A stretch of 32,000 nt of DNA from Desulfovibrionales bacterium (GCA_965112965.1 CBCOTE010000001.1:1-32000); one strand, 5' to 3'; positions 1-32,000 are shown, counted from the stretch's first letter. The notes: generated by a model not told the origin, from the sequence alone. Numbers and translations: made by a program.

Positions 1-2903
1 AGGCCTAAACTTTCATGTAGATAGTCGACTAGATGTAGCAGCCCGATAAGATCGGTGACCTCTTGTCATCCACGTTAGCCACACCTAGATGTCAGGGTAG
101 AGTATAATCAGCAGGTCGGTCACGGGCATAACGCGATCCAAAAAAATAAATATATAAAAACTCTCAGAGCTCAGAATCAAACCAAATAAAACTATATATA
201 GTTACCTTAAGAATGAGCAGCTGGAACAGATTGCCACGACTGAAAAAATAGAGAATGAGTCCGGACACTATATTTCTTGTCTACTATCTAAACATAACGA
301 CCAAAAAATGCCTTGCTGATAACGCTACCATTTAAAGGTATAGCATATGAACCGCAACGGATTTATGAAGCTAAAAAAAACAATCAAAATTTAGTGGATA
401 CGCCAAACCACGCTCCATTGCCGAGAAAACGATAGATGACGATTTAACTTAGGTGTCCTATACAAAATTATGCACTCCCAGGCCAAAAAAAGGGGGCAGA
501 TCGGCTTAAAGTCGTATAGAAAACGTAGAAACACGACCTGGACATCCGGCACGCTGACAAATTTAGAGAGCAAATACAAACTATAACTAACAAAAAAAAT
601 AGCTTACAGTTAGCTATCCAAATCCTTATATACAGGCTGTAGATGCTCAAATATCTGTTAGAGTCATAAAAAGAATAACCCTTATATCGAAATTCGGATA
701 GAGGAAATCTCCCTCGAAAGGTCAAATAGAGTGACTCTCGGCAGTGCAGGTTGGGCACGATATCAAAAATATCTAGCCGCTAAACGCCAGATAGCGCTGT
801 ATATTAGCCAGGGCATACAAAAGAGTTAGCTAGATATTCGAGAATGCCATACAAAAAAATGCAGTGAAAAAACCGTAAAATGGCTTCCGTCAAGTCTACC
901 CCTTCCTGTTAAATTTTAGGCATAAAACGACATAAATTACACTCTACAGCTGCTTCATCCACTCCAGGTCTTTTATGCTGCATAATATTAACGGTCAGCT
1001 CTTATCGCACGTGAGCCGGAGAATAAGAATTCTATAACCGCACAACTAAAATCAAGGACCCTCCAGATGCCTTCAAAAAATCAACTTGTATGTGACTAAT
1101 CGGTTCATCGTGTCTCAGACCCTTAATCAATAGGTCATGATCGGAAAATAGAATATCAGAAATGCTACCACACACACCCTCAACAGCCAGATATGACACG
1201 CGAGACAATACCGAAAACTGACCGTCAGCCGAATGGCCTAAGCACCACAAAAATCAAGGGGGCTAAAATAACAACATCCGCTTGCTTATGATAATACACC
1301 ACATATATCCATGAACTACATTCACGACCACCATTTCCCACAGATACCTGGATACGAGATGACCTAATAAAAATTTTCGCACGAAACAACTGCAACACAC
1401 TAACGTCGTTCCTAAACAGATATAACCTAGGCAGCCTTTATCAACCGACCATATGTAACCTATTTTAATTCCGCCATGAATACGATAAGTTTGAGATCTA
1501 AAAATCTCCAGAGCAGTGCCTAGATGGTTAGCAAACTATGCTCAGACATAAAGTGAACAACGCCATATAGACCTGCACTACTAAAAAAAATAATTACCAC
1601 TTCTATGGACTAGCTACGAAAATCGCCGACTCCATAAGAAGGCCATAGCCATCGCCCGTAGCCTCCACGCTCGCCATACTTAAACGCCTACTCGACAGAC
1701 ATAGTCATGATCAGAAGCGCCTACGTCCAATCCGCTTAAACAGCAGCCCGAGTATTGCTTCGCTACATACCCGAATGAGCTGGACATGCGTTTAGCAAAC
1801 AGGGCCGAAGAAGAAGATAATAACGTTCTGCAATCACAATAAGGCAGACAGCCAACTATGTCATCTATGGCATAATAAGTTGATAAGATGAGAAAGCCCC
1901 AAGTATTATGAATTCGCAGAAAAAATATGACAGCATAAAATCTGGCCATCACAACATACTCTCCACTTAACAGCTAAAATCTCTGACTGATCCATCGATA
2001 TTGATGAATATTTTATACGATATTGAGTACTAATGTTCGGAATTTCTTGCTACAACCCCTGTTGCAACATTGCTTCGGCAAAAAAAAGGTACCAGTTAAA
2101 AAAAGCACTTTGAACGACGGCGCCCTATTCAAAAAACGGCCGTATCATAATAAATGACCTTAACTTAACCAACATAACCGATCCCTTCGATATGACAATA
2201 TTCCAGGGCCAAATCCAAACTATAATTGACCAGCAAGATGGCTTCATTCATTATATTTGAAATCGGCTAGACGAAAAGAAACTAAACCCAAAACTCACCT
2301 TCACATGAGCTTTTCCCGAATAAGCTAGATCATCGGTACGGGCGCATATATAGATAATATGATACAATCTTAACTAAATAATATTATCCGAAAAATATCA
2401 AGGGCTTACACGTCAATCTCTACAGCATACTCTAGCACATGACCTGAATCTTCGGGACGACTCCACCACTGTGTTCGACCTGGCGTTGGCTTTAGTCAAA
2501 ATCTACGACAGCCAGGTGATAGTCGTAACTAAAACAGAATCTTTCACGATGCGACCGAGCCTAACCAAAAGACGTCAGTGAACAATTTAAAGCTAACCCA
2601 GGAGCATCTCTATGCAAGTCTTTTCTTATCTTTTTACGACTGCCCAAGCAAAATATTAGGCGTATAGTCGCCATTAAACGGCATTTTCTGGCCCCACTTA
2701 AGCTAAAATAACTAACAAGGCTGACGCCGCGACCAAAACTCTCTAGCGCATGACTGACTCCTAGCGCCCACGCGCTGTAGCCCGACCCGACTCCTAGCTT
2801 GCACCCAGGCTTTTATACGGGAGAGTAAGGGCTTCAACCACGTATCTTTGGCGCCCGGAAAACTCTTGCTAGCATCAAACTAAATCGCTCGCACTATATC
2901 TCA
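1..2903. other. ORF-poor, A-rich tract (probable eroded / pseudogenised DNA)
   Basis: No ORF longer than 96 aa in any frame over 2.9 kb, and none of the listed ORFs has a recognisable motif. Spot composition at 1381-1440 is A23 C17 G8 T12. Frequent A6-A8 runs, e.g. 373-380, 592-599, 1583-1590, 2080-2087. Confidence 0.5.
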
Positions 2904-4070
2904 CTATACCTTGGCTTCAGCCCGATGCACAGATTCGCTATCGGATAACCTCACCCTCAACTGGCCACAGGCCGCGGCTATATCCGCGCCCTTACTCTTA
3001 CGCAAAGTTACGGTCATATATTTTGCACGCAGCAGGTTCTCGAAAGCCAATACTCTCTCCGGTGACGGCGTAGCGTAAGACAGCCCAGGTACCTGATTAT
3101 AGGTTATAAGGTTCACTTTAGCCTTACGGTCCTCTAACAATTTTACCAACTGCCTAGCCTCTGCTAGACCGTCATTTATATCCTTTAGGAGCAGGTATTC
3201 GTAGGTAATACGCTGCCTCGACTTAAGCGGGTAACGGTCAAGGGTGGTCATAAGCTCTGACAGGGGGAAAAATGCCGCGCGAGGCATGATTCGTTCCCTG
3301 AGCTCCTGAGTCGGCGCGTGCAGCGAAATGGCCAAAGAGACTCGGGCCACGGCCCCCAACTCGTCCAACCCTCTGGGTAACCCTACTGTTGATACTGTAA
3401 TCCGCCGCGGAGAAAAATTTAAGCCCTGGATATGCACTAGAATCTCCAGTGCCCGCAGAAGTTCGCCCAGGTTTAACAGTGGCTCGCCCATGCCCATAAA
3501 CACCAGCCTCCTGAGTCGCCTAGGCTCGATACCGGCAGCCGTCTGCCGCGCTAAATACACTCGGCCCAACAATACCTGCCCAAGGATCTCACCGACTCGT
3601 AGATTACGGGTAAATCCCATAGTCCCGGTTGAGCAAAAGCTACACCCCAAAATACATCCCACCTGAGTGGATAAACACTGAGTAACGTAGCCGGTCCTGG
3701 CCGCTCCATTCAAGTGCGTCCTCCAGCTTCTCATCACACCCTCGCCACCCATACCCCCTCTGTCTGACGATTCGTCGAGGTCAAAGGGAATGAGCACAGT
3801 CTCAATACGTGCTCCGTCTGCGAGTTCTAATAGCAGCTTGACCGTGCCATCACAGCTCACGACCTCGGAGACAATACGCGGCCAAGAAATAATCGCCCGC
3901 TCGGTCAAGGCGACGCGCAGTCCCTTGCCTAAATCGGTCATGACAGCCAAATCGGCCACGCCTTTGTGCCACAGCCAACGAAAAAGCTGCCGGCCGCGGT
4001 AGACGGGTTCACCAAGGGAGACCACAAAGGCCTCCAGCTCTGGCAAGACCAAATCGAGAAGGTTAATCAC
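2904..4070 (-). CDS. rlmN: Radical-SAM 23S rRNA/tRNA adenine-C2 methyltransferase RlmN
   Basis: 388-aa ORF with GTG start and TAG stop. Radical-SAM CxxxCxxC motif in STQVGCILGCSFCSTGTMGF. GMGEPLLN and the C-terminal DIAAACGQL are typical of the RlmN/Cfr family. GC-rich island. Confidence 0.9.
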   Translation of the reverse strand: MINLLDLVLPELEAFVVSLGEPVYRGRQLFRWLWHKGVADLAVMTDLGKGLRVALTERAIISWPRIVSEVVSCDGTVKLLLELADGARIETVLIPFDLDESSDRGGMGGEGVMRSWRTHLNGAARTGYVTQCLSTQVGCILGCSFCSTGTMGFTRNLRVGEILGQVLLGRVYLARQTAAGIEPRRLRRLVFMGMGEPLLNLGELLRALEILVHIQGLNFSPRRITVSTVGLPRGLDELGAVARVSLAISLHAPTQELRERIMPRAAFFPLSELMTTLDRYPLKSRQRITYEYLLLKDINDGLAEARQLVKLLEDRKAKVNLITYNQVPGLSYATPSPERVLAFENLLRAKYMTVTLRKSKGADIAAACGQLRVRLSDSESVHRAEAKV

Positions 4071-7000
4071 AGGGCAGTCCAGTAGTTAAAAAACGAAATA
4101 AAAAAAACTAAGAGCCAGACAAGGCCAAATGGTACCGTTCCCCACAAAAAATAAAAGGTTAACCTTGACCAGAGAAAAAAATAACTAAACTATCCACACC
4201 AAAAATTCTTAGAACCATTCCTAGCCCTTAGTAGTGGCAGACCACGAACTCGGATATATTATAAAATTTGTCAGCTAGATGGCTCTTGAACAAGACCTCG
4301 TACAGCAGCTGATGACAGGACCAAACTTCAAACTCAAGAAACCTATAACTCGTGTTATTAGGCATAGACTCACATTAATCCTTTGGCCACGCTAGATATT
4401 GCAGTTCACACTGGAGCCAAGAGCCATGTAGGCGCTCTCGCAGACCTTTAATATCAACCGTCTCAATAAGTCGATAATAGTCATCCAAAAATATAAAAAC
4501 ACAATCTGTATATATAAATCTGAATGTAGGTAGTTGCGCGCAAGTTAGCACATAAGTTCTATATTGACCGGAATAAAATCCCACATGGGTAAAAATCGTG
4601 CGGGCAGAATTAGCACCATTTTTTAAGATACTAAAAATTCACTCGCCTTCGACATATTCCACGGTACAAAGTTTTCCCCATATCTTTGAACAGATAAGTT
4701 ACGGTATCAAATTAATCTTAGGGCAATTCTTCAAAGTAGCGGCACATACCCTACAATAGTATGGACGAAACCAGTTTCTTCTCACCTCTTTCGTTCTTAA
4801 TCTACCTGACACGGAAGAAAGTAGCCATTACAACGACAAAGTCTATACAGAAGATGAACGTCGAAGATTATGCACACAAAAAAATAACAGGAATTCTCGG
4901 ACTCCAATATTACGCAACTCGTCCATGATATCAAAAAATAAAACGTAGTCGAGAATATCTTGAAAGCCGTGGACTATATCCATAATAAACGCCTAGACCA
5001 TGGCAGAGACAGTTAATCGCGAAACACAAGAGGCATAAATGTCAAAGATACAATTACGGTATATAGTATCACCTAAAAAAACTAGTAAAATAAATTTTTA
5101 CCTGCACTTCAGTCCTCTAAGTCCTAGCTAAAGTCCCAAGGCTGGAATAAATAAGAACAGATTAAATAAATAGCTGGTCATTGTTCGATATCTAAGGCCT
5201 TGATCATATAACTAAACTTAGCCATATGTAGTCTCTAGGTGGGAGGCATATACGATATCGAATTGACAGAAATTATAAAGTACATCAATCTTTTACAACG
5301 CGGTCATGATATAGGATTAAATGTACCATCTATATAAAAAAAGTCAACGGGTAATGTCAATTTCTAAAAAAACTTCCGGACTGCAACAATTCACACTGCA
5401 AACGGTGTTAATGAGATATGTATCGTAGCCATTACGCATAATAATCATGAGGGCATTCAATATCTTTGAACGGATAGGCCGTTTACGGCCTCCTAGAGTC
5501 ACGGGATGCCTAACCTGGAAGCAGAACTCACTGCCCGCCCGGACGTCCATTTTACAATTAGGACTAATAAGAGCAATAGATCCGACATCGAAATGAATAG
5601 CAGACCAGATTTTCGCCGGCCAGCCAAGGCTGAACCATCCGACGCCTTACGGCCTTGACCATTGCTACCTTTAAGACTACAAAAAATTTCACGCGCCCGT
5701 AGCTCAACCGGATAGAGCGCCGGACTTCGAATCCGTAGGCCGCAGGTTCGAATCCTGCCGGGCGCACCACGAAAATCAAAGAATTACTGCCTGTCTAGAC
5801 TACAGCCCAGTTCTAATTGTATAAACGTCCTGACCGTCAAATATAAAAAACTACAGATTGTCCATAAGCATGGTAGACTTCCTTGGTCGATGATATAACC
5901 GGGGACGATGGATCTACTGAACTTCAGCCCGAATACCACCTCAACCATGGCCCTACCCATACTCTGCCCTGCCCACTAGAACCAAGAGAAGAGCGCTAAT
6001 CGGCCTTATAGCCTTCTATAATGAGTAAAGTCTATAGCGATTATTATTCACATCATACTATGCAAGATCGTCAAAAAAAATAAATCGCCTGCGGTAAACT
6101 CATCAAATCTATCGCCGCGTTGTTCGCCCAGCTGGTGCGTATAGCCTCTTATGCCGGCTACCTCTTCCGCACGAAACTAGCAATATGCATACGTCACACC
6201 TAATATATAATGCACCCCGGGCATGATATCTAGCCATTCCAAAAAAAAACAATCCACCCGTTTTTTAGGAATACAATGACATTCATCTCCCACATACTAA
6301 ATAAAAAACTATATAGAAAACCGATCAACCAATAAAAAAAGCTATTACTTACTGCTATCCTTTTATGAGCAACTTCAATTTCACAGTTTTATCTAAAGAA
6401 TGGCAGTGAAGCTATAATATTCCGCATGGAACCATTACAGACCACCGCGGCCATATTGTCTTCCAATATAATAGCCTCCTGTTTTGTGAACTAGTCCTGC
6501 AATCTAGTAATTTTTTTATACTCCTGCGATGTCTGCTAGCTTATAACTTAATAGTTGTGCTTATAGTCTGACTAAAAAAGGTGCATGTCAGAGCCGACAA
6601 AAAAACCAATAATTATTAACATATTGAATATGATGACTAAGATCATATTTCTATCTAGCTGACACTACTAACGACCGAGTTGCGGCCCTTATCTTATTTT
6701 GGAGACACGCCTCATTCTAACTTGAACTGATTAAACTTACGCCACAACGTAACTTGTGGATTGTCTAAGATCCAGGCAAGCAACCCTTTCATGTATCCCG
6801 AATATTCCAAAACAAACTCAATATGCCAGTGCCCTATCTACTCCAGGCTCAGAAGATGTTTTTTATTTTACAGCCCCGATGTCTATCTGCTGGATATTAC
6901 GGATAAGAATTGAACGGAGATTAATGACTCAAGGTCACACAGGACCATAGCATAACCCGCCATGTTTCTAGCTTACGCGCGTTAACTAAAAACCATCGAC

Positions 7001-8800
7001 CATAAGAAAAATGTAAAGTCCAGACTATTAGATAGCATGAAGCAGCTTCGCCTGTATAAAAAAAATAAAATATTTCTAAATCTCGTCTAGTCTAACCGAA
7101 CGCACTATACAAGTCGACGCGATCCTCTGTGGCGCTCGATGACCAAATAGATCATGGCCAGCTCCACTCCAGTGCTTTTATCTACTAAAAGACTTATGGG
7201 AAGCACTCCGGATCGACACTGTTGCCTTGCCCATAGCACGGCCCGGATACACGGTGCTCATGCCCTGTCTGGTCTCAGCAACCCAAACTAGGCCTAGTGA
7301 CATGCGTCGTATTCTCGAACAGATTCAGCAATGTCTGCTACAAATATAGTGATGAATCCAGACTCGACTCGTTTCTTCGTACGTAGTTTCAAATTCATCT
7401 TCAGCTGTAACGCCATTGCCTTCAACTATCTAGCTTAAACGAATAGGATCCAAAACAAGCAAATTACATCTTCGGCCGGAGAACTCTGAAAATACCGTAC
7501 GGGAACTATATCGCATGGCCCATTTGGTATCCTGTCATCTGTACAACGATATAATTGTATAGAACTACAATCAAACTTAGAATATCCTCTTGACGATTAA
7601 AGGTGCCCTAAATGGTATCCTGACGAGTATGTAGCTACTAACATTTTCTGATATTATCTGAAGATTGAGCTTTTAGTGTGGCTTACCGTACTGGACATAG
7701 TCGTGGGGCTACCTACCCCAGACGAAATGACAGACATAATCACGGTCATGGCTAAGCTGCCGCCCCTCCAAAAAAAGGCAACACTCACAAAACATAATCA
7801 AATATACACGGACTCTGATGACTATTGCATATTATAACTAAGTCTATTTTAGACGCTAAGTTATACTTGTCTAACCGTAACAAAAATATGCATTGTACTA
7901 TTAAAATACCTACTCCTGCCCAAATACTATTAGATCCTCTAGGCTACTGGATATAAATGGTCATAACCGGGAAAAATCCTCAAAATAACTCTTTGCTGCT
8001 TCGACCTCAACTTGATATTCGCGCTCTTCAGTTTCTACACACACTGTAATAAACTATTCACCCTCTCCCGTAACCAAGTAGACCATCTATCATCTCGAAC
8101 TACAACACCATACACTACTTAAACATTATTTTTATGCCCGACCTGTAATCGCATCTACTGGGTCAGTTTACAAAAAAAAACGACTAACCCCGACGCCGAT
8201 TCAATAGCTTTCTGGCCAGCTTAAACTATGTGCCAATGTCAATATCTTTAGACTGAGATAAACTAATAATAACTCTGGCTACAAAAAAATATGCCTTCTA
8301 CCGCTTACATTTGGCTAATCGTTAGGATGTAATCAACGGACAACTACGGCAACTTACTGATATTGCGTAAAAAATAATGCTTTTTTTAGGAATAGCCTTA
8401 TAATTGCGTAGAATAGTCAGGTGTCCAAATACATACAAGATGCCCCCCCGAAAAACAACCCGACTCCTAATAGGAGATTAACGTACAGACCTATGGACGA
8501 CAAAAAATAAACGACAAGTTAACTTAATTCGGCGAGTTCAAGTATAAAAGAAATATAATAAGTACCAATTATACATTGAACCATGCAAAAACCGCTATTG
8601 GTACCATACTGCAAATATTTTTTTATAATTAACTACACCATTTGGCAGCTTACAGAATACGACAACTATTATAGAATCGTACAGAACTATTTAAGGCAAC
8701 TAGCATAAAATAAAAGAATTGGCCAAGACCGGACACTAAACCGAGTGGCTGCTGTTGACGGTCTGGAGGATAGGAAGATAACAATGTTCCAGACAGAAAA
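4071..8800. other. ORF-poor, A-rich tract with a single embedded tRNA (probable eroded DNA)
   Basis: 4.7 kb whose longest ORFs are 64-71 aa without motifs. Dense A7-A9 runs, e.g. 6073-6080, 6241-6249, 7058-7065, 8172-8180. The only clearly functional element is the tRNA at 5693-5769. Confidence 0.5.
5693..5769 (+). tRNA. tRNA-Arg, anticodon TCG (UCG), CCA encoded
   Basis: 77-nt cloverleaf folded by hand. Acceptor stem GCGCCCG/CGGGCGC. D arm GCTC-AACCGGATA-GAGC. Anticodon arm CCGGA-CTTCGAA-TCCGT with anticodon TCG. Variable loop AGGCC. T arm GCAGG-TTCGAAT-CCTGC. Discriminator A followed by CCA. Close in layout to E. coli tRNA-Arg. Confidence 0.92.
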
Positions 8801-10117
8801 TTAGAATGGGTTATAGGTCTTCGTGTCGGTATAATGCATATACCCCACACTTACCCCCACTCGCAAGCCATGACCACTACGAATAGGAGCAAGAAACACG
8901 TCCAAATTTTGTTGATAATTAACACTATATCCTTCCACTACATAGATACTGCCATCCATACCCAGAAAACGTTGAAAAAGCATCTGAGGATCAGTCAAAT
9001 TGAAAAGCAAAGTGAAGACTTTGCCGCCGTTGCCGCCCAAGTCCAATCCGATGGTCGGACTCTGCCAGTAGATATGGCGCGTCATACCATTCTTGAACCA
9101 TAAGTCACCTTCGCCGTAACGAAAACCTACGATCACTGCACCGGTACTTTCCTCACCCATAATGTAGCCGGTAGGCTGACCGTGGTCCTTAAAAATTTTA
9201 TCTAGAATCTGGGCCAGAGCCAAAGAATATTCGCCAAAAAAACGCTCAATCTCTTGGCGCATCTCATCCTTGGTAAAAGTCTCATGCCCTCCATAACGAT
9301 TCTTGATGCGCGGTTCGCGGAGCATAGTGTCGTCCTTTTTCTGGCCCTGTCCCTGAGCATAACGGGCTTGGATATCGATGTCAGGACCTAGCTGCGATTC
9401 TGCCGGTAGCTGGGATGACTCACCTTTGTATGGCGATCCTGGCTGTGACTGCCAGATAGGAGCCTGAGCTGGCTGAACTGGCTGTGACTGCCAGATAGGA
9501 GCCTGAGCTGGCTGAACTGGCTGTGACTGCCAGATAGGAGCCTGAGCTGGCTGAACTGGCTGTGACTGCCAGATAGGAGCCTGAGCTGGCTGAACTGGCT
9601 GTGACTGCCAGATAGGAGCCTGAGCTGGCTGAACTGGCTGTGACTGCCAGATAGGAGCCTGAGCTGGCTGAACTGGCTGTGACTGCCAGATAGGAGCCTG
9701 AGCTGGCTGAACTGGCTGTGACTGCCAGATAGGAGCCTGAGCTGGCTGAACTGGCTGTGACTGCCAGATAGGAGCCTGAGCTGGCTGAACTGGCTGTGAC
9801 TGCCAGATAGGAGCCTGAGCTGGCTGAACTGGCTGTGACTGCCAGATAGGAGCCTGAGCTGGCTGAACTGGCTGTGACTGCCAGATAGGAGCCTGAGCTG
9901 GCTGAACTGGCTGTGACTGCCAGATAGGAGCCTGAGCTGGCTGAACTGGCTGTGACTGCCAGATAGGAGCCTGAGCTGGCTGAACTGGCTGTGACTGCCA
10001 GATAGGAGCCTGAGCTGGCTGAACTGGCTGAATTTTGAAGTCTAATGATTTAGCGCCCGTAGGTAACGCATCGAGTATCCAGTAGCAAACGAACAGAAGA
10101 ACAAAAAAATTATACAT
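8801..10117 (-). CDS. Secreted tandem-repeat protein with a beta-rich C-terminal domain resembling DUF1134/EipA
   Basis: 438-aa ORF with ATG start and TAA stop. Hydrophobic N-terminal signal-like segment MYNFFVLLFVCYWILDALPTGA. Then 15 x PVQPAQAPIWQSQ. The ~150-aa C-terminal domain (GAVIVGFRYGEGDLWFKNG...YWQSPTIGLDLGGNGG...IRSGHGLRVGVSVGYMHYT...NPF) recalls the DUF1134/EipA periplasmic family from memory. Confidence 0.8.
   Translation of the reverse strand: MYNFFVLLFVCYWILDALPTGAKSLDFKIQPVQPAQAPIWQSQPVQPAQAPIWQSQPVQPAQAPIWQSQPVQPAQAPIWQSQPVQPAQAPIWQSQPVQPAQAPIWQSQPVQPAQAPIWQSQPVQPAQAPIWQSQPVQPAQAPIWQSQPVQPAQAPIWQSQPVQPAQAPIWQSQPVQPAQAPIWQSQPVQPAQAPIWQSQPVQPAQAPIWQSQPVQPAQAPIWQSQPGSPYKGESSQLPAESQLGPDIDIQARYAQGQGQKKDDTMLREPRIKNRYGGHETFTKDEMRQEIERFFGEYSLALAQILDKIFKDHGQPTGYIMGEESTGAVIVGFRYGEGDLWFKNGMTRHIYWQSPTIGLDLGGNGGKVFTLLFNLTDPQMLFQRFLGMDGSIYVVEGYSVNYQQNLDVFLAPIRSGHGLRVGVSVGYMHYTDTKTYNPF
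9441..10025 (-). repeat. Perfect tandem repeat, 15 copies of a 39-bp unit, in frame within the CDS
   Basis: The plus-strand unit ggctgtgactgccagataggagcctgagctggctgaact starts at 9441 and recurs every 39 bp up to 9987. I saw no substitution in any copy. A partial extra copy, ggctga, lies at 10026-10031. Confidence 0.95.
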
Positions 10118-20888: not shown

Positions 20889-20935
20889 GCTTCCCTGGGG
20901 CGGCCGAATAGAAAACGTCAGACCATCCCGCTTTT

Positions 20936-20964
20936 TTTATATCGCCATCGGAACATCTTTTCAA
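20936..20964 (-). promoter_or_regulatory. Candidate sigma70-type promoter upstream of coaX
   Basis: On the minus strand: TTGAAA (20964-20959), a 17-nt spacer, then TATAAA (20941-20936). This places it about 45 nt upstream of the coaX ATG at 20888. Sequence match only. Confidence 0.35.
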
Positions 20965-23365
20965 GTATTTTTCGATCCTTCCAAAAAAGCTCGTCCGTCC
21001 TCACACCTCAACAAACTGCGCTGCTTTGACAGGTCTACTTCTCTCGCTAACAATATATGAATGGGAACAAAAAAAAATAATCTACCAGTCTCTTTGGTAT
21101 AATTTATTGACTTACGTGGCTATGGCCATGTCCGACCTCAAAGCGGTCTAGTCTTCATAAATTCTTTTAGACGAAGTGTTCGCCGTAATCATGTGGGAAC
21201 TTGTATGTCTGACGATGGGCGAATCCCTAAGGTGCTATCGGCGAAATGCCTAGCCTGACAAACGGAGATGGTTGGGCTATTTGCGAATATAACCTGCTTG
21301 TCTGATGCCCGGCAGCTATGCCCCATCTGAAACGTGTCCGTAAACATAAACCGTGACCTTGCTAGCTACAAAATAAACGCGGCTCATTTGCGGTATTCTC
21401 TGTGGCAGACTTCATCATATTCATGGTCCGCACCTAGACCATGACGATCTTTTGCGCCAGCCCAGCCAGCTTCATTGTAGCCCAGTACGTCCCGACTATT
21501 GTCCAAAAAAACATATGGTCACGACATATTTCACGATTGATATTGGCATTCTTAAAAACGCCCCATACCACGCAGTCAAATATCTTATAATATAATCACC
21601 ATTAAGAAAATGAAACAATATAACATGAACATACCTAGATCATAGCAGTCAGATTCAACGCCATCAGCGACCTGGCTGCCTACGTCCTGGCCAACGTCAA
21701 AATACCTGTTCGGTGGAACAAATCAAGCTTACACGCCGGAACAGATCTAAACTATCAACTGCTGGTATGAAAAAAATCGAGGACTATTTTTTTACGCTAA
21801 ATTTGTCTAATATTTGAATTATGACATCTCAACTACTGGCTGAAGCTTAAGCACATAGCCTTCAATCTGTTATTAAAGCTAACTAAGGAGCACCCCTTAC
21901 GTTATTAATACGTCTAAAGCATAGACAGCCCATTCTATGTTAACAGGCCAAAGCATATACTATAGTGCTCCTATATACCTTTCAGCTGCTAACGCAGTAT
22001 AGTATCGGTACGAACATGGCCCATAGTTTACTAGACCTTGTCATCCAGTACGACCAAATAAAAAAGCTCCTGGATGTAGCCAAAGTACCAGTATCACAGT
22101 TTCCCATGAACATCCTCTTCCCCAACCAAACACACCCATTGCCCCCGGCCAGCCGTCGCTTTACTATCAGCTGCCGGAAGTTAAAGTAGAGCTGATAACT
22201 AGCCCCCGCAGCCATTCTCAACCACCTTTGGCAAGGCTGGCTGCCATATATCTATGGTATATAATGTAGAACAAGTCCATCTTGAGGTATGGCCGTACTT
22301 GTTCTAAGGTATAGGCCAAAGACTTCCCATAGACCTTCACGGACACTACAGTATTCAGGATATTCCTAGACAAAGACGGCCTAGCGACATGCTAAGAATA
22401 AACTATAGATATCGTAATCGGCCAGTTATAAGTTGTACGTCCCGGACCTTGATCCTGGTCTTGGGCGCTATCGAAACATAGCGACTCCTTGCTCAACTCT
22501 GCCTATCAGACTTTCACAGACGACCTAAACAATAAGCATGGGCTGTTGGATGCGGAGTTCATAAAAAAAACCTTTACGTCGGCATTATGTTCTTCTTTAG
22601 GAAAAGCTGGCCACCTACTGGGCCATCTTAATGAATAAACATTGACTTAATCGCGTCAAAGCCGGCACTATACTTCGACCGCAGGCTAGCTATATACTCT
22701 TACAGAGAATCGAGCTTCACCAAATGAAAATGGCCATATTTTTGTCATTAGTATTACTATGAGAGCTATAGCCATGAAAGCAGAATCTTCAAGAAATATT
22801 ATAGCAGCCACCCATGCCCGGATTATAGCCGTGCAGTTGCCGCAGTCAAAGAAACCACTAACCATAGATCTACAAGAAACATCTTCGGCCTATCCAAAGC
22901 GCATGTCGAAATGCATACAGATCTGTCCAACTATCCTTTTGTTGGAAGAATATTCAAAATATATTTAGAACTAAGCCGCCAATCCAATGTAACCCGGCCG
23001 AGACGACACTCTTCACCTACCTACTGCAACTTCGATAGTTAAAACTAATATATAAGACGCAGACTGCATAAAAAAAGAATCCAATCAGCTCGATCGTTAG
23101 TGTCAACTACCGCTACCACGCTATCCTTAATCTATTATGCATCTACACATCACCGCCACCAGCGCGCTGCTCGCCCAGGACTGCAACTTCTAGCCCTCGC
23201 TGACTATTCAAGCACTGTCTCTTGCAGGCCGCCGCAGGTATTATCGGCCGGTCCTGAATGTTTCCTTTGGTCCCGCGTCCCACGAAACACGCTTAGTTAA
23301 CAATTCCTCATGAAACAAAACAAAATTTATTCTGTCTAATTTCTCTTTTTTCGGTTAAATTACAA

Positions 23366-23715
23366 GTCCTTTTCTTTTTTTTCGGGATACCCATCATAAA
23401 AATTGTCATATCTTTGACTATAGTCACGTTGCTGACCGCTTCCCCGTCCTAACAAAACTTATCCAATCTCAAGTAGCAGCAAAAGCGACACGTCCAAAGC
23501 CTCATTGTTTTTTTGCATCAAAAAAAACTACCCTTCCTGCCCGACTGCGTACGTCAGCAGCCAAAAAAAACAAATAGCCCCTCATCGCCCCGAGATGCAC
23601 TCATAGCAACCGCAATCCTTTCTTAAGAGAGACTCCATGCAACGCATAATATTTCTGACTATATTCCGCGTTGCCGACCGCTTCTCAGGCCCTTACTGAC
23701 TTCTCCAACTTCACG
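23366..23715. repeat. Degenerate direct repeat, two copies about 241 bp apart
   Basis: Core copy A at 23411-23443 is tctttgactatagtcacgttgctgaccgcttcc. Core copy B at 23652-23685 is tttctgactatattccgcgttgccgaccgcttct. They share tgactata, then 17 nt with 2 mismatches. Weaker similarity extends about 40 bp on both flanks. Confidence 0.5.
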
Positions 23716-24865
23716 GCCAAAATAAATGCTCAAGATGGTCCTAACTCACATTAAGAAAGCCTGATTTATAGCCAAAACTGAAGCTAAATTAAAACTAGAG
23801 TTAAATTGGTCAAAAAGCTGCATCATCTGCACGCCAACTATCAAGGATAGGTAACTCGATGCTCCTCAGCAAGTGCCATCCATAGTGATCGCCCACCGAA
23901 TACGCCACGCTCGGCATCCGTATACAACAATAGTAACGCCAACAGCTTGCAGTTACGTGGTCCAGGAATCCTGAGATATAATGATTCAGCCAAAGACGTA
24001 TCTGTACGAACAGTCCATTTTTCACGAGATACATCGATACACTCAGTCATCAATAAAAATAAAAAAGAACCTAGCCATTTCGACCGTTTAGGTACTAGTT
24101 GAAATCTAGCCCGGGTATACCAAAAAAAAGCACGCACGACAAATATTCGGCGCGTAATTCATAGTCCGGACTAACGTAAAAGGTCCTTAACAGGCTCTTT
24201 TAACTTCTAAAGTACCGGGCCACCATTATCCCTACCTCGTAACCATACACTGTACAATGAACACTATTCTCACTCGCTGATACTCAAGCCATGAAAATGA
24301 CCAGGTTGTAGTTAAATATCTAGATCCTAAACAAGACTGCCTGATGCTACAAAAAAAAGACAAGATAGCCGACCAGCGCATTAAGACCTCACATGACCAG
24401 TAAACTCATATGGATAATTCTCAGAATAAAAAATGCCGTGGTTACAGCAAAAAAATAATGACACTGTCTTTAGAGCCGGCATGAACTGCCAGTCAGGTGA
24501 GGCCGTAGCCACGCCGATGCAGTCGACCTCTGGTCACCCAATAGAACGCGCTGACACTCGGAAGATATTCAGACATTTAAATAAAGCGTCAATTACGATT
24601 TAGACACTGATTGTATAAGTCTACAGACACAAAAGAAGATACAAAAAACACAGCAGTTGATGATCAATAACATAAGGTCGTAACATAAATAAAAGGAATG
24701 ACTTAGCGGCCCTAGCCAGAATTTCTATGAAAACGCAGTAAAAAATGTAAAGCAATTAATAAGGATGGAATTAATACAACACAAAAAACTTAAGATACCA
24801 AAAAAATTGAAAAAATTGTGTCAAATTATAGAGGAGTGGTCTGCAAAAAAACTGTGGAATGGATT

Positions 24866-25342: not shown

Positions 25343-26244
25343 GTGTTACTATTCTATTATTCTGCGGAATGTAAGTATAAACAATTAAAAAAAATGTACA
25401 AGGCCAACCAGAGCAACTACTTCCAAAAGGATCTGACTTTACATCTGGGGAACCAAGAGCTCAGACTCACAAAATATACTTGGACCATCGCGGCGAAATA
25501 TATAATCTACGCTACGGTGAGAACCTTGATCAGTCAGCAGCGCTCTATGGGCTCACCAGTGGTAGGCTGACCCTAGATAACGTGATCTTCCACGGCCCTG
25601 GACAAAAAAACTCGTGACTGCCTTATCTAAAGAATATATGTTACAAATCAAAGAAGATCAACCTCACAGACTTGTAAAATTACATCAACATACTTCAGCA
25701 ACTTACAACAAAATAAGAGACCGTAGTGCTCAAGTACAACAACTCAAGTGGCGCAGCTTGGATCAACGAAGGCATACTGCGACGCTGGAGCGCGCTGTAC
25801 AAGCCAACTTCATCACGGCCTTCAGTGCATTATTGTAGCGAACCGATTCTATATACGGCCACCTATGAAATCATCGATACCAACTACTTTGAGGTAGCGG
25901 CTGCACCTGATTACAAGTCAAGGGCACTAAGCACTATCAAGAAACGAAAAAACTTGCGCGTCCTGCGCATCCCAGACTTGGCTAACCTTGCCGACCTAGC
26001 CTGCAAACACTTCCTGGACGTCAAATCACTTATGGACGACGACATAGTGTTCCAGGCATCAACCTGCAATCGCACCAGCATAACTGCAGACTTCCTGCCC
26101 GCCACGGCGAAACATGCTTGTCGTATTCTCAAAGCCCGCACCATCACCCTTACCGAGACCAACGACCTGCTCTTTATCTGGGCCGTGGAAACCAGAATAA
26201 CATCCAGCTCGGTTATTTTCGCTAAACATGGCATGCCCCCCTAG
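25343..26244 (+). pseudogene. Possible frameshifted plus-strand gene (three staggered ORFs); the last ORF may still be functional
   Basis: ORFs 25343-25570, 25614-25838 and 25726-26244 follow one another in the three different plus frames. The 172-aa last ORF is protein-like (…EIIDTNYFEVAAAPDYKSRALSTIKKRKNLRVLRIPDLANLADLACKHFLDVKSLMDDD…). No family recognised. Confidence 0.3.
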
Positions 26245-26579
26245 CCATAGGCATAAGAGAAGAAGGCCTGGGCTTGATAAACTACGTAGAGCTGGCCACC
26301 CACAACGCCTACACCAAGTACACCGATATCTTGAATTTTACTAAACACGAACTCTCCTTCTATGACCTTAAGGTAAAAGCAGCCAAAGAAGAAAAAAAAT
26401 GCCAAGACCTTAATAAACATCAAGACACGCACGGCCAAGGCCAAAACTGATCTCACCAGTTCGATACTCGTATCCAACAGCTTCTTATCTTTTTTTGCGA
26501 CGGCATAAATCTGGCGCTGGCTCAAATGGTGACGGCTATCGCACAGCCCGGAGACTCCATCTACCGATATTTCAAACAC
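26241..26579 (-). CDS. Hypothetical small hydrophobic protein (doubtful)
   Basis: 112-aa ORF with two hydrophobic stretches, SVLALAVRVLMFIKVLAFFFFFGCFYL and IGVLGVGVVGGQLYVVY. Its start is only 20 nt from the divergent RNase II start, it is AT-rich, and it contains a T8 tract. Confidence 0.2.
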   Translation of the reverse strand: MFEISVDGVSGLCDSRHHLSQRQIYAVAKKDKKLLDTSIELVRSVLALAVRVLMFIKVLAFFFFFGCFYLKVIEGEFVFSKIQDIGVLGVGVVGGQLYVVYQAQAFFSYAYG

Positions 26580-26599: not shown

Positions 26600-28738
26600 A
26601 TGAACATAATTACTGGAAGTGTCTACCGTCCAGCCCCAGGATGCTTAGCGGAACTTATACTACACGACCGGCCACTCATAGCCTGGGTGATGGCAGAGGC
26701 CGGCGGCCAGCTGCGGCTGGTGACCGTTACTAAACGCGAATTAAAATTATCCGTATCCCGGCTCTTGCCCTGGCTCGGGCCGCAGCGTACAGCCGGAGCC
26801 AGCCGACAGGCTGTCCAGGATGAATTAGAAGTCCGCCAGGCCGAGCGCGAGCGCCTGGCCGCAAGAATTGATCCACTGGAAATTTGGAAACTAGCTCTGG
26901 GCGAGTTGTCTAAAGCCCGACCTGAATGGTTTGCCGAACTTTTATGGGAACGGCCGGATCTAGACCATGTAGCGGCCATAGGCCGAACACTCCTAGCCTG
27001 TAAGACCCACTTTCGCTTCCGTCCGCCGGATTTTGAAGTTTTTCCAGCGGAGCTTGTAGAAGCGCGCTTAGCCGCGCAGCAGGCGGCTGAGGAATGTGAA
27101 CGGCTAGCCACGGTCGGCCGCAGCTTCTTCTTGAAACTATGGGCCGTGGCCCAGGATAGGCAGGCTGAACCACCCACACCACCAACTGACCCCGGCCTGA
27201 GCAAACAACTAGAAACACTTCTGAAGCACCGTCTGACTAAGCCCGAAGACGCCGAGTCCAAAACCGTATGGGATTTGGTACAAAAAGGCCTGCCTGAGCA
27301 TCCCCACCAAGCCCTCTTGTTAGCCCAGGCCTGGGGCCTGATACCGGCGCACTATAACCAATACCTGGAACAGGCTGGCTACACTGCTGGCGATGCCTGG
27401 GCCATGACCTTCACTGCCGAGATTGCGGCACAGCGAAAGGCCTTCGATCTGATACGCCGGACGCCCGAAATCCTGGATCTGATCAGTATAGACAGCCCCA
27501 CTACCCGAGATATCGACGACGCTTTTGCAGTGACACGCCGGGAAAACGGCAAATTTGATATCCGTATTGCCCTAGCTTGTCCGGCCTTGGCCTGGGAGAT
27601 CAACTCACCTATGGATCAAGTCGTAGCCGAACGCAGCACAAGTCTCTATCTACCCGAAGGCACCAGCCACATGCTACCTGAGGCCCTAGGCACAGACCTC
27701 TTTAGCCTATGGACCGGAAAGGACCGGCCGGTACTACTACTGGAGATCTCCGTGAATACCTTCGGGGACATCACCGCCTACGCCGTACCACGCCTGACCT
27801 GGGTCCGAGTGGCAGCTAACTTGAGTTATGAGATGGTGGAGGCGAACTATACAGGCGACAAAGCATCCGCTGCCAAGCCCTTCACTGCTTCACTAGAAGC
27901 AGGACTGATCCTAGCTGAAGCGCTACGAGCGCGACGTATCAGACATGGGGCCACGGTAATTGAACGTAATGAGCCTGAAATCGTACTCAAAGGTCTGGAT
28001 ATAAATGACGGCCAAAATCTAACCGTACTACTAGGTCCGAGGCCGGACACACCTCGAGCACAGCTCCTAGTGAGCGAACTCATGATCCTAGCCAATGAGG
28101 CTACGGCGGCCTGGGCTAGCTGTGTTAGTATTAGAGACGGTCATGATGTCAGGATGCCGCTGCCCCTTATTCATCGCACCCAGGTAGCCAGCCTCAAAGC
28201 CGAGCAAGCCGGAATATTGAACACTCCTCTAGACGTCTACCGAGCGGTCAAGGCCATGGGTAACTCGCAGCTGGAGGTAACTACGCGACCGCACAGTGGA
28301 TTAGGGGTGCCACTCTACGCGTTAATCTCCTCTCCGCTACGGCGCTATACGGACCTGCTGAACCTCATACAGATACTCCACTATCTAGCTCACGGCTCCC
28401 CTCGCTGGGACCACGAAGCTCTCAAGGCCAGACTAACCGCCCTGAACACTAGACTAGAATCAGTGAGCCGAATACAACGCTTCCGGACACGCTATTGGAA
28501 GCTGCTCTATTGCAAGCAGCAGGCAGACAAACGCCGCTTTTTAGGAGTATTAATAGAAAAGAACCAGTATTTCGTTACAATAGCGCTGCCGGCGGAGCAA
28601 CTCTTCGTACGTGGCCCGCACCAACTGTTCGGAGACAAATGCGTACCAGGTACAGCCTACACCCTCAATCTTGGCCGTATCAATCCCATGGGCAACGAAA
28701 TCCACATCATCGATGCCGAGGCAGTGGAGACCATATAG
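26600..28738 (+). CDS. RNB-domain 3'-5' exoribonuclease (RNase II/R family)
   Basis: 712-aa ORF. RNB motif I in ISIDSPTTRDIDDAFAV. Also HSGLGVPLYALISSPLRRYTDLLN, the conserved RNB C-terminal motif. The C-terminal ~80 aa are S1-like. Confidence 0.9.
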   Translation: MNIITGSVYRPAPGCLAELILHDRPLIAWVMAEAGGQLRLVTVTKRELKLSVSRLLPWLGPQRTAGASRQAVQDELEVRQAERERLAARIDPLEIWKLALGELSKARPEWFAELLWERPDLDHVAAIGRTLLACKTHFRFRPPDFEVFPAELVEARLAAQQAAEECERLATVGRSFFLKLWAVAQDRQAEPPTPPTDPGLSKQLETLLKHRLTKPEDAESKTVWDLVQKGLPEHPHQALLLAQAWGLIPAHYNQYLEQAGYTAGDAWAMTFTAEIAAQRKAFDLIRRTPEILDLISIDSPTTRDIDDAFAVTRRENGKFDIRIALACPALAWEINSPMDQVVAERSTSLYLPEGTSHMLPEALGTDLFSLWTGKDRPVLLLEISVNTFGDITAYAVPRLTWVRVAANLSYEMVEANYTGDKASAAKPFTASLEAGLILAEALRARRIRHGATVIERNEPEIVLKGLDINDGQNLTVLLGPRPDTPRAQLLVSELMILANEATAAWASCVSIRDGHDVRMPLPLIHRTQVASLKAEQAGILNTPLDVYRAVKAMGNSQLEVTTRPHSGLGVPLYALISSPLRRYTDLLNLIQILHYLAHGSPRWDHEALKARLTALNTRLESVSRIQRFRTRYWKLLYCKQQADKRRFLGVLIEKNQYFVTIALPAEQLFVRGPHQLFGDKCVPGTAYTLNLGRINPMGNEIHIIDAEAVETI

Positions 28739-28892: not shown

Positions 28893-29426
28893 TCACCGCT
28901 GCGCCGGCACACTCCCTTCCAGTTCAAGAAGAAATATCTTCATGGCCTGCCCGGCACCGGAAAAATGCCCTACCCGGCCTGAGGCCGGAAGAACACGGTG
29001 GCAGGGCACCACAAGGGGCCATGGGTTAGTAGCCATAACTTGACCCACTGCCCGCGCTGCACCAGGACTGCCACAACGGGCGGCTAACTCGCCGTAGCGT
29101 ACCGTCTGCCCTGAACTAAAATCAGCACGCAGCCGCTCCAATACTCGCCTGGTAAAAGCCGGTAAACCTTCCCAAGCCAAGGGTAACTCAGGCCAAACTA
29201 CCCGACCCATAGACACATACAACCCTACTGACTCTCGTAACGCCATAGACGCCACTGAAAGGGGCAAAGTCGCCGCCCCATCTTGCTGCCTCTCGGACCA
29301 GCCCAATTCCAGCCGTACCAGCTGCCCCTTCTCCCAGTGGCAAACCAGAGCTAACGGTTTGGATATTATATACTCTTTCCCGGACATCAACCCAGCTAGC
29401 GCTTTTTTCGTCCGCTGCATACCCAT
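28893..29426 (-). CDS. ogt: Methylated-DNA-[protein]-cysteine S-methyltransferase
   Basis: 177-aa ORF. Active-site PCHRV in VVPCHRVLPASGRVGHFSG, preceded by the helix-turn-helix-like YGELAARCGSPGAARAVGQVMATNP. The exact start is uncertain (M1, M3 or M14). Confidence 0.85.
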   Translation of the reverse strand: MGMQRTKKALAGLMSGKEYIISKPLALVCHWEKGQLVRLELGWSERQQDGAATLPLSVASMALRESVGLYVSMGRVVWPELPLAWEGLPAFTRRVLERLRADFSSGQTVRYGELAARCGSPGAARAVGQVMATNPWPLVVPCHRVLPASGRVGHFSGAGQAMKIFLLELEGSVPAQR

Positions 29427-29511: not shown

Positions 29512-29587
29512 GAAATATTGAAAATTTGGCCCTAGGCCTTCCATGCCCTACAAGATCACTATGAACCATCATAACATCATCAACAAT

Positions 29588-30310
29588 ATGAACCGCCGTA
29601 CTTTTCTCAACCTTGCTGCAGGTGTCGCCGCTACAGCTAGTATCTTCAGATTCACTACCTCCGTTCGAGCCCAGGATCACCCAGACATGTTAGCTGCCAG
29701 CCCCATCGCTCTACCACCCCTGCCCTGGCCTATAGACTCTCTGGCCACAACCATATCGGCCCGAACCATTGAATTCCACTACGGCAAACACCACTCCGCC
29801 TATGTCAAAAAAACTAACGAACTCCTTAAAGACTTCCATGTTGAGGCTACCCAGCTAGAAGATATTATCCTCCAAACTGTCAACGATCCAACTAAGATTT
29901 CCCTCTTCAATAATGCCGCCCAGGTTTGGAACCACACCTTCTTTTGGCACTCCCTTCGGTCCAAAAATAACCTCGAACCAACTAATAATCTACGTAAAGC
30001 CATTGTTGATATGTTCGGCTCCGTGGAAAACTGTAAACGCAAACTCGCCGAACTCGCTATAAGTCGCTTTGGCAGCGGCTGGGTTTGGCTCTCCATAAAG
30101 GACGGTATTCTAGCCTGCACGGCTACTGCTAACGCCGACACCCCACTGGCACACGGTTTCGCACCCCTACTCTGCATCGACGTTTGGGAGCATGCCTACT
30201 ACCTTGACTACCAAAACCGCAGAGCCGATTATATCCATATGGTCCTCGACAACATTCTCAATTGGGATTTTGCCGCTCAAAATTTCGCCGCTGCCACGCA
30301 CATGATATAA
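29588..30310 (+). CDS. sodB: Fe/Mn-family superoxide dismutase with a twin-arginine (Tat) signal peptide
   Basis: ORF opens at 29543. The start is chosen at M16 because MNRRTFLNLAAGVAATASIFRFTTSVRA is a textbook Tat signal. SOD motifs: HYGKHH, WNHTFFW and DVWEHAYYLDYQNRR. A periplasmic Fe-SOD is known in Desulfovibrio. Confidence 0.9.
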   Translation: MNRRTFLNLAAGVAATASIFRFTTSVRAQDHPDMLAASPIALPPLPWPIDSLATTISARTIEFHYGKHHSAYVKKTNELLKDFHVEATQLEDIILQTVNDPTKISLFNNAAQVWNHTFFWHSLRSKNNLEPTNNLRKAIVDMFGSVENCKRKLAELAISRFGSGWVWLSIKDGILACTATANADTPLAHGFAPLLCIDVWEHAYYLDYQNRRADYIHMVLDNILNWDFAAQNFAAATHMI

Positions 30311-31430
30311 CGGAAACAACTGTAAAAATGCAGAATGAGAATTTTTTTTACAAAAAACTCCTTGCATTCCTTTTTAGCTACCCTCACATTTCGTTCAAAA
30401 AAATCTTATTACTATTACGAGATAATATAGAAACAAGGGAGTGTTAGGCCATTTGTAATCTAACTTTTTTTGAGTAAGTAAAAGATTCTCTGTCATTATA
30501 CAAAAAAAATATACTCTATAGATATTGTCACTCCAGCCAAGCTCAACTTTTATACCCTAGTAGGACTTACTCTTTTAATCCTATATCTTCTTATTTTGCA
30601 TCATCGCAGGTGTCAAAGTTTACTGACGGGCCATAACTCATTTTTTTGGCCTAGAAACAAGAATTATATATGACCAGAAGGCTACCGAACGCAAACAAAT
30701 CCTTTATCGCTGGGATATCCTCGTTTTCGAGCTCTTCTTCCTCCTCCACGATGGCTACTTCCATATTATATGACCCAGATTCTCCAGTTTTACGGCAACA
30801 TAGTAAAAAATTTCCAAAAAAAATGTTTAAATAATTGTACTCATAAAATGGTCCAGCAATCCGACACACTCCAGCAGTCTCAGACTTATCCTAACTTAAC
30901 TACTAATCACGGCGATAAGTCAGTATAATAATATAGCCGGCCATTGCCCATCATATCCGAATTGACCACTGCGTTACGGTTAATACATTTATAGCCTGAA
31001 ACCCAAAGGAGCAAACGTTAAAAATTTGACTGCTAGACATTATAAACTTCCTTCTGCTAAACCGCTAGCGGCTGCCTAAATCCCTATTAAGCGTACAAAA
31101 AAATATTAAAATCGAGATACCAAAGCAGATGAGGTCAATAATTTTTGTCGCCATCCTCGGAATTGTCTAGTCTAGGTGTCAATATATAAATATTAACCTT
31201 GACTTCCTCCAAACAGCTCTGCCGAGTGTGTAGTCAAATCATTACAGACAAGAATCTTTTGCACCCTACTAGTTCAGGTCGGAAATATACATCAATACTC
31301 AACGTATATATCCACGTACGTCACAAATTCCAATTCAGCAGTAAGACGCATCCAATGTGCCCTTCCCCACTTCTTTCATCCTAAAATTTCCAGGCGGCCA
31401 ACGTTAAATAAAGAGCCACACAAAATTGCT

Positions 31431-32000
31431 ATGGACACACCTGGAGATAAACAGACCATACGCACCACTTTCCTAGCATGGCGTCAAATGCTGGATCCAG
31501 CTATAGTACGGGAGCATTCCGAACGCATACAGTGGCAGGTGTTGGCATTGTCCGACTGGATCACAGCCCGTACCGTGTTGCTCTACATGCCCTTCCGCAA
31601 CGAGGTAAACACTGGTACACTCCTCAATGCTGCCTGGGCTGCAGGCAAACAGGTTTTTCTCCCACGTTGCCGGCCCAATACCAAAAACTGTCTTGAGCTA
31701 GTCTGCGTGACCGATCTGACTGTGATCCAGCCCGGCGCCTACGGCATTCACGAACCAGATCAAAATATCTGCCCAGCTGATAAAGACTATATACCAGACC
31801 TAGTGGCTGTCCCGGCCGTGGCTTTCGACCGCTGCGGCTTCCGTTTAGGCTACGGTGGCGGCTACTACGACCGCTATCTAGCCGGCCTGCCACGGACTAC
31901 TCATGAAACATCCAGGACCGTAGGTTTGGCCTATAGCTTTCAAATACTAGACCGGATTCCTGCAGACCCATGGGACCAACCCATAAATATATTGGCCACG
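31431..32000 (+). CDS. ygfA: 5-formyltetrahydrofolate cyclo-ligase (3' end beyond the window)
   Basis: Not in the ORF track because no stop is reached. Hand translation from the ATG at 31431 gives MDTPGDKQTIRTTFLAWRQMLDP...LLYMPFRNEVNT...VFLPRC...AVPAVAFDRCGFRLGYGGGYYDRYL...PWDQPINILAT. GYGGGYYDR is the family signature. Confidence 0.85.
   Translation, partial: MDTPGDKQTIRTTFLAWRQMLDPAIVREHSERIQWQVLALSDWITARTVLLYMPFRNEVNTGTLLNAAWAAGKQVFLPRCRPNTKNCLELVCVTDLTVIQPGAYGIHEPDQNICPADKDYIPDLVAVPAVAFDRCGFRLGYGGGYYDRYLAGLPRTTHETSRTVGLAYSFQILDRIPADPWDQPINILAT

Follow-up and report, generated by a model that had tools for sequence, protein, structure and literature searches.

In Mycobacterium leprae and in recent symbionts of the Sodalis type, mass pseudogenisation has turned about half of the genome into non-coding DNA; the pseudogenes have a lower guanine plus cytosine (GC) content than the live genes, and most of the dead genes can be recognised by homology. 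The authors who described the pattern in Serratia symbiotica SCc, which lives as a co-obligate symbiont in the aphid Cinara cedri, took it for the final stage of pseudogene decay that precedes deletion (Lamelas et al. 2011, PMC3213167). Among the host-associated Desulfovibrionaceae, the genomes of 'Ca. Desulfovibrio trichonymphae' and Lawsonia intracellularis are reduced to 1.41 and 1.46 Mb, respectively (PMC5322295). Here we describe a window of 32,000 bp, that is the whole stretch of DNA analysed (GC 0.455, zero Ns), from the genome of the Desulfovibrionaceae sp. DsD-1, in which mostly single intact genes are separated by kilobases of AT-rich DNA. We consider it likely that the window is typical of the DsD-1 genome and that this bacterium is an obligate intracellular symbiont in late but un-purged reductive evolution.

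The window closely resembles the genome of S. symbiotica SCc, in which 38.7% is coding (PMC3213167) compared to 37.3% here. Intergenic regions of S. symbiotica SCc have a mean length of 1,672 bp and show no trace of homology, similar to the gaps of the window, and the GC contents of its coding sequences (CDS; 38.7%) and intergenic DNA (27%) are about 12 points apart, as are the 53% and 41% observed here. S. symbiotica SCc has few recognisable pseudogenes (58) and no insertion sequence (IS) elements, and in the window one recognisable pseudogene and no mobile-element domain were found. In contrast, S. symbiotica SCc is a Gammaproteobacterium of an insect bacteriocyte, whereas DsD-1 is a sulfate-reducing member of the Desulfovibrionaceae in a ciliate; its overall GC content is much higher, and its published coding density of 57.6% includes many small open reading frames (ORFs). 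Within the family, 'Ca. D. trichonymphae' and Lawsonia are coding to 79.8% and 83.7%, respectively (PMC5322295), so that their dead DNA must largely have been deleted; 'Ca. D. trichonymphae' carries 188 still recognisable pseudogenes at a GC content of 54.8%, which is not depressed. A preliminary description of the stretch, made from its sequence, had called a lineage in mid-erosion unusual for this clade, and the two relatives bear this out.

The assignment to Desulfovibrionaceae sp. DsD-1 ('Endodesulfobacter magneticus') can be regarded as secure on the basis of sequence identity and gene order. Three proteins of the window are identical to CAM2056503, CAM2056521 and CAM2056566, and the KEGG table of the genome publication (Nat Commun 2026, PMC13103400) lists eight window genes in the same order from JFAAJGIO_01097 to 01121 (01097 rlmN, 01106 dinB, 01107 tlyA, 01111 eno, 01112 coaX, 01118 RNase II, 01120 sodB, 01121 5-formyltetrahydrofolate cyclo-ligase, 5-FCL). 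According to this publication, DsD-1 is one of four endosymbionts in a magnetotactic freshwater ciliate and produces magnetosomes; its intracellular location was determined by microscopy and fluorescence in situ hybridisation. The genome (GCA_965112965.1) was obtained from amplified single-host-cell material and comprises 2,251,498 bp with a GC content of 45.74% in 26 contigs at a reported coverage of 160x. Annotation gave 2,659 CDS with a mean length of 496 bp, 40.24% of which fall in a cluster of orthologous genes (COG), and very few mobile elements were reported. Genome size was described as reduced and GC content as low; the coding density of 57.62% (57.4-57.6%) was termed unusually low and explained by non-functional sequence that was 'not yet fully purged'. 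A host-restricted or endosymbiotic lineage in mid-erosion, as proposed in the preliminary description, is supported by these data; the proposal was right, with the genome and the phenomenon both already published. A contrast in GC content between coding and non-coding DNA does not appear to be described in PMC13103400, the main text of which is free of the words 'intergenic', 'non-coding' and 'noncoding'.

Gene content and base composition

Twelve intact CDS, one CDS leaving the window end and a tRNA gene sum up to 11,930 of the 32,000 bp (37.3%), far below the 85-90% that is the norm in bacteria. Thirteen credible protein genes and one tRNA gene were counted; the sum takes in rlmN, the gene of an EipA-like protein, dinB, tlyA, folD, eno, coaX, a hypothetical gene of 132 amino acids (aa), RNase II, ogt, sodB, 5-FCL and tRNA-Arg. 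The coding share of about 37% given in the preliminary description is reproduced by this sum, and its seven gap sizes of 2.9, 4.7, 3.2, 1.9, 4.0, 1.3 and 1.1 kb are all correct.

Genes and gaps differ clearly in base composition. The GC content amounts to 0.532 in the CDS versus 0.413 in the gaps, and to 0.405 in those gaps that are unexplained. Segments of 300 nt show a mean of 0.533 when coding (n=28, minimum 0.473) and of 0.409 when non-coding (n=58, maximum 0.49), with slightly overlapping ranges (Mann-Whitney p = 2e-13). Spot values mentioned in the preliminary description hold as well (31.7% at 14701-14760, 41.7% at 1381-1440 and 66.7% at 13801-13860). The retained genes are themselves poorer in GC than their relatives: GC at third codon positions is 0.50-0.57 in eno, folD and coaX versus medians of 0.72-0.77 among 28-51 Desulfovibrionaceae orthologues, and it reaches 0.8-0.9 in the orthologues of the closest relatives. 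Pressure towards AT therefore acts on the retained genes, too. An accompanying shift of FYMINK versus GARP amino acids in the retained proteins was small and inconsistent and was not used.

The most AT-rich stretch of the window, with a GC content of 0.24-0.28, is found at 14583-15023 between the start of dinB and the end of tlyA. Comparable troughs lie beside several genes (8557-8649, 10252-10297, 24656-24786 and 30376-30529). Such troughs may approximate the GC content at mutational equilibrium.

Strand asymmetry is uniform over the whole window. Nearly all segments of 500 nt, coding or not, exhibit negative GC skew and positive AT skew, and the cumulative GC skew of the + strand declines steadily to -9.9. 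Gaps (GC skew -0.18, AT skew +0.13) and CDS (-0.11 and +0.11) share the sign, the skew being stronger in the gaps, and nine of the 13 protein genes are located on the - strand. From the uniform sign it follows that the window as a whole belongs to a single replichore, the - strand being the leading one. In the gaps the skew fits neutral DNA that has long resided on one replichore.

The purH relic and the contents of the gaps

Only one gap is a demonstrable pseudogene, namely purH in its ancestral position at 25379..26570 (+; PF01808 with 54 bits, hidden Markov model (HMM) score 219 bits, homologues and tblastn frames). The relic aligns to residues 2-399 of the 424-aa purH proteins of Desulfovibrionales with 40-45% identity, but the alignment runs over three reading frames with at least two frameshifts and in-frame stops. 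On balance the relic has lost no length, and with 0.467 its GC content is intermediate. The relic fills the space between the 132-aa gene (DSUL_100030, 24866..25264, -) and the intact gene of an RNase II family exoribonuclease (rnb, 26600..28738, +), which shares 44.7% identity with the orthologue of Megalodesulfovibrio gigas, likewise placed after purH. Four relatives, M. gigas among them, share the order purA, sometimes SLT, a gene of about 140 aa (-), purH (+) and rnb (+), with plsY following rnb in two of these four. As the succession of 140-aa gene, purH and rnb is kept, the relic occupies the site of a former live gene. In agreement, the KEGG table of PMC13103400 lists no purH orthology entry (KO) for DsD-1. 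Two deposited 'hypothetical' CDS belong to this locus: DSUL_100033 (25726-26244, +, 172 aa) is a piece of the dead purH, and DSUL_100034 (26241-26579, -) is antisense to the 3' part of the relic.

The 132-aa gene itself, the orthologue of the gene of about 140 aa in the relatives (47.8% identity to the M. gigas gene, HMM 112 bits), stays intact in DsD-1, though its neighbour purH has died. A protein of about 130-145 aa that matches no Pfam family adjoins purH-rnb in four Desulfovibrionales relatives; homologues were located in L082 (9379-9798), L086-L088 and L011 (12275-12649). In L011, a gut Desulfovibrio, the homologue follows folD, whereas in the window the gene lies upstream of coaX, which indicates that gene order has been rearranged.

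The other gaps are far less informative. All eight gaps (20.6 kb) were scanned in six frames by comparing stop-free pieces of at least 14 aa with Pfam. The scan returned purH (AICARFT_IMPCHas, 54 bits), the intact 5-FCL gene and a single sub-threshold dCache_2 match, while about 18.3 kb of gap DNA contained no protein domain in the six-frame Pfam scan, no repeat and no RNA family. Nothing recognisable was thus found at 1..2903 (2.9 kb, GC 0.41), 4071..5692 (GC 0.39), 5770..8800 (GC 0.40, with a small GC islet at 7163-7329 that has no convincing RNA structure), 10118..13292 (3.2 kb, GC 0.42), 20889..24865 (4.0 kb, GC 0.425, also by tblastn and profile HMMs) and 30311..31430 (1.1 kb, GC about 0.40). 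The gap at 15832..17750 (1.9 kb, GC 0.41) holds the orphan ORF DSUL_100022 (16800-17210, +), which with 136 aa is the longest of any gap; it has no Pfam match, and an exhaustive HMMER search of 1.84 billion representative proteins returned only DSUL_100022 itself. A further, very AT-rich spacer (GC 0.276) separates the start of dinB from the end of tlyA at 14499..15060. About 90% of the dead DNA in the window is unrecognisable, unlike that of Mycobacterium leprae or Sodalis-type genomes.

The dCache_2 match at about 2114-2320 (+) scored 23.2 bits, and 18.8 on rescan, both below the gathering score of 26.5; a second match in another frame is out of order with respect to the profile, and the finding was kept as a lead only. 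It might be what is left of a chemoreceptor or a sensor kinase, which would fit the reported loss of flagella. Rfam gave only the tRNA, even at E <= 1. Folding of nine segments from the GC islets of the gaps revealed nothing convincing, as the two that fold slightly better than shuffles (z ~ -2.2) do not stand out once nine tests are allowed for. The window lacks dispersed or inverted repeats in excess of chance, and no transposase, integrase, phage or other mobile-element domain was detected by Pfam in any frame of the gaps.

Broken protein-like frames, which the preliminary description had seen in the gaps, could not be confirmed as a general feature. In comparison with composition-preserving shuffles, stop-free frames of at least 60 aa (53 vs 51 +/- 6.6) and of at least 100 aa (5 vs 4.4) occur at random level, and only those of at least 80 aa are slightly in excess (23 vs 14.7 +/- 3.7). 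Codon periodicity decreases from 0.064 in the CDS over 0.031 in the purH relic to 0.0187 in the gaps, compared to 0.0147 in shuffles (gaps vs shuffles p = 0.016), which is at most a faint coding residue. One segment of 300 nt with residual periodicity lies at 10868-11167, within the gap 10118..13292.

The loss of recognisable homology was simulated with eight M. gigas genes that evolved neutrally under AT-biased mutation and indels to a target GC content. Decay to a GC content of 0.41 takes 0.53-0.70 substitutions per site. At this point only 5-22 of 40 replicates were detectable with their own ancestral protein as query, compared to 32-35 of 40 at a GC content of 0.47. Since the simulated genes are mostly undetectable at 0.41, the absence of homology in the gaps is as expected of old pseudogenes. 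A deep shift in base composition, seen in the GC content of 0.66 at the M. gigas locus and in the third codon positions of the orthologues, helps to explain the loss of recognition as well. The earlier view of the gaps as old pseudogenes drifting towards AT is shown directly only for purH, which makes up some 1.2 of the roughly 20 kb. Elsewhere it relies on composition, strand skew and the simulation instead of recognisable broken frames, and on these grounds we infer that the unrecognisable 18 kb descend from ancestral genes.

Proposed history and alternative explanations

In the proposed history, host restriction would have come first, after which most ancestral genes would have lost their function. 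Strongly AT-biased mutation would then have acted on all DNA, with the GC content being held near 0.53 where purifying selection persists, i.e. in the retained genes and the tRNA, and falling to about 0.41, locally 0.24-0.28, in dead DNA. A plausible cause of this bias is suggested by the KEGG table of PMC13103400, in which no mutS, mutL, ung or mutY row is given for DsD-1, while recA and fpg are present. In the window dinB and ogt are intact; together with the absent mutS/mutL/ung/mutY rows, such a repair set would favour GC-to-AT change. Deletion would be too slow to remove the dead DNA, leaving kilobase spacers between single retained genes. Most of the dead DNA would have accumulated about 0.5-0.7 substitutions per site and be past recognition as coding, and purH, still readable and of intermediate GC content, would be a later casualty. 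We further infer that weak deletion, not selection, retains the dead DNA. Lost recombination was considered as the cause of slow deletion and was ruled out, as recA is listed for DsD-1.

Several observations weigh against this history. With recA retained, slow deletion has no obvious reason, and the ancestral and equilibrium GC contents of the simulation are assumptions. Direct homology covers only the approximately 1.2 kb of purH plus the sub-threshold dCache_2 match. Regions of +/-10 kb around eno from 80 GTDB genomes (about 50 of them Desulfovibrionaceae) were compared with the window by tblastx; coaX-eno-folD is the only block shared with the relatives, the gaps flanking it match none of these neighbourhoods, and the eno neighbours expected from the roughly 50 relatives were not found in the gaps. 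Neither tblastn with M. gigas proteins nor maximum-sensitivity profile HMMs from four relatives traced purA, holB, SLT or plsY in the window, and in the 4.0-kb gap at 20889..24865 in particular these searches detected nothing of purA, holB and SLT, the ancestral neighbours. Alignment to the neighbourhoods of relatives, by which the preliminary description proposed to trace the gaps, placed purH in ancestral synteny and left the other gaps without a match. In part the missing traces are explained by relocation: the KEGG table shows purA and plsY alive elsewhere in DsD-1, and the candidate of a purA relic in the 4-kb gap was dropped. The block of 132-aa gene, purH and rnb has consequently lost both ancestral flanks, and gene order is scrambled to the extent that an ancestral origin cannot be assigned gap by gap. 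Finally, the statements of PMC13103400 on pseudogenes in DsD-1 conflict. The Results give DsD-1 the highest pseudogene share (>6%), whereas the Discussion assigns almost none to DsD-1 and 6% to DcD-1. Pseudogenes were called there only via split Escherichia coli orthologues, a procedure that the purH relic would escape. The statement that DsD-1 has 'almost no pseudogenes' is more likely due to dead genes having decayed until they could not be recognised than to a lack of such genes.

Among the alternatives, an origin of the AT-rich DNA from foreign or mobile sources, such as a decayed prophage, IS elements, acquired islands or DNA of the host ciliate, appears improbable to us. AT-rich islands are typical of foreign DNA, the gap sequence is unrecognisable and of unassignable origin, and the scrambled gene order suggests an earlier phase of mobile-element activity. 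However, mobile-element and phage domains as well as repeats beyond chance are missing, DsD-1 is described as having very few mobile elements (PMC13103400), and every gap shares the replication-type GC and AT skew of the genes, which speaks against recent imports as well as chimeric DNA of the host. The same uniformity of skew, together with the reported coverage of 160x, bears on an assembly artefact, in which amplification chimeras or contamination would have interleaved genes with unrelated AT-rich DNA. Amplified single-host-cell material and a draft of 26 contigs would make such an event conceivable, but we give it practically no chance, since Logan assemblies of the two runs ERR15526394 and ERR15526395 are 100% identical to and colinear with 541-6248, 10001-26755 and 12553-19298. 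Their contigs reproduce 22.5 kb exactly and span five gaps as well as gene junctions, by which the misassembly considered in the preliminary description is excluded.

The deposited MicroScope annotation implies that the gaps consist of real, lineage-specific genes that have escaped recognition. CDS were indeed annotated there (DSUL_100022, DSUL_100029, DSUL_100034), and the slight excess of frames of at least 80 aa points in the same direction. Against this stand the random numbers in the other frame-length classes, a codon periodicity close to shuffle level, the lack of any six-frame Pfam match and the longest ORF being devoid of homologues. Moreover, DSUL_100033 is a fragment of purH and DSUL_100034 is antisense to the relic, and genome-wide the mean CDS measures 496 bp with 60% of CDS outside any COG, so that we judge this explanation to be very unlikely. 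Functional non-coding DNA (regulatory, small RNA or structural) under selection is even harder to reconcile with the data, and we attach next to no weight to it. Promoter-like hexamers are somewhat enriched (52 vs 37 +/- 6) and the folding of two GC islets is slightly better than that of shuffled sequence, but spurious promoter matches arise in AT-rich sequence, the fold scores are unremarkable given the number of tests, and Rfam finds only the tRNA. To our knowledge, kilobase-scale regulatory regions around single housekeeping genes are without precedent in bacteria. Decayed ancestral genes in a late, un-purged genome thus remain our preferred explanation of the gaps.

Retained genes, annotation and meaning for DsD-1

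The retained genes outside the purH locus are, for the most part, readily identified. On the - strand, rlmN (23S rRNA/tRNA A2503 methyltransferase, 2904..4070, GC 0.54, TIGR00048 with 362 bits) is intact and encodes the protein identical to CAM2056503. It is followed by tRNA-Arg(TCG) at 5693..5769 (+, 77 nt, ARAGORN, Rfam 73.7 bits), which with a GC content of 66% forms a solitary island within 4.7 kb of DNA at 39-40% GC. Likewise intact on the - strand are dinB (DNA polymerase IV, 13293..14498, NF002677 with 344 bits), tlyA (rRNA 2'-O-methyltransferase, 15061..15831, TIGR00478 with 200.8 bits), folD (17751..18605, NF010783 with 344 bits), eno (enolase, 18691..20001, TIGR01060 with 651 bits), coaX (type III pantothenate kinase, 20073..20888, NF009855 with 278 bits) and ogt (O6-methylguanine-DNA methyltransferase, 28893..29426, TIGR00589 with 77.5 bits). 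The eno sequence shares at most 76% identity with any GTDB species representative. The intact 5-FCL gene leaves the window end (31431..32000, +, PF01812 with 151 bits over profile positions 1-185 of 186); its start at 31431 was set from the position of the start codon.

The gene of the EipA-domain envelope protein (8801..10117, -, PF06577 with 205 bits, product identical to CAM2056521) contains 15.2 perfect tandem repeats of 39 bp (9439-10030), which are 100% identical and encode PVQPAQAPIWQSQ. The array is flanked by a signal-peptide-like N-terminus on one side and by the EipA envelope-integrity domain on the other. In a genome that is otherwise decaying, it is odd to find an envelope protein with a perfect repeat that expands in frame. 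As the Logan contig L084 ends at 10001, inside the array, the copy number of the 39-bp repeat is uncertain from short reads. Another feature concerns the Fe/Mn superoxide dismutase (sodB, 29543..30310, +, PF02777 and PF00081), which carries a twin-arginine-like leader, NRRTFLNLAAGVAA, with a weak TAT_signal match. The leader suggests that the enzyme is periplasmic in this sulfate reducer, whose host is an anaerobic ciliate.

Published tables support the view that the window is representative of the DsD-1 genome: it contains eight KO rows compared to 9.1 expected per 32 kb (about 639 rows in 2.25 Mb). The annotation, in contrast, differs from our gene count. Judged from accession and locus-tag spacing, about 32 CDS were annotated by MicroScope between rlmN and rnb versus nine accepted here, and several of the deposited CDS are probably chance ORFs. 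That the published 57.6% exceeds the 37% found here is due to many small gap ORFs being annotated as CDS, and the published value is probably inflated by such spurious ORFs. A second annotation of DsD-1, by Prokka, lists about 1,600 genes in 2.25 Mb; like the KO rows, the mean CDS length of 496 bp and the 40% of CDS in a COG, this indirectly supports a pattern that extends over the genome. A rough whole-genome estimate, which counts about 1,070 genes with a COG at about 920 bp each and some further genes outside COGs, gives a coding share of about 45%. A true genome-wide coding density of about 40-45% instead of 57.6% is a tentative idea that we regard as unlikely. If it were true, DsD-1 would be level with the lowest bacterial coding density known (38.7% in S. 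symbiotica SCc), and this with recA and almost no mobile elements. Deletion would then be exceptionally weak, or bulk DNA would be kept, e.g. for cell or nucleoid size in a cell with six magnetosome chains, and local GC content would serve as a clock that tells in which order genes were lost when this symbiosis arose.

For DsD-1 the value of these results is corrective more than new, as many chance ORFs have probably been counted as genes in the deposited annotation and in the published density. They add an effective coding density of about 37% in the window, a full-length purH relic of intermediate GC content in ancestral synteny, and chance ORFs deposited as CDS. GC islands in ORF-free DNA are a usable detector of late-stage genome erosion, by which an endosymbiont was diagnosed from raw sequence. 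DsD-1 would be a second, phylogenetically independent case of the rare stage known from S. symbiotica SCc, in a protist host and with high-GC ancestry.

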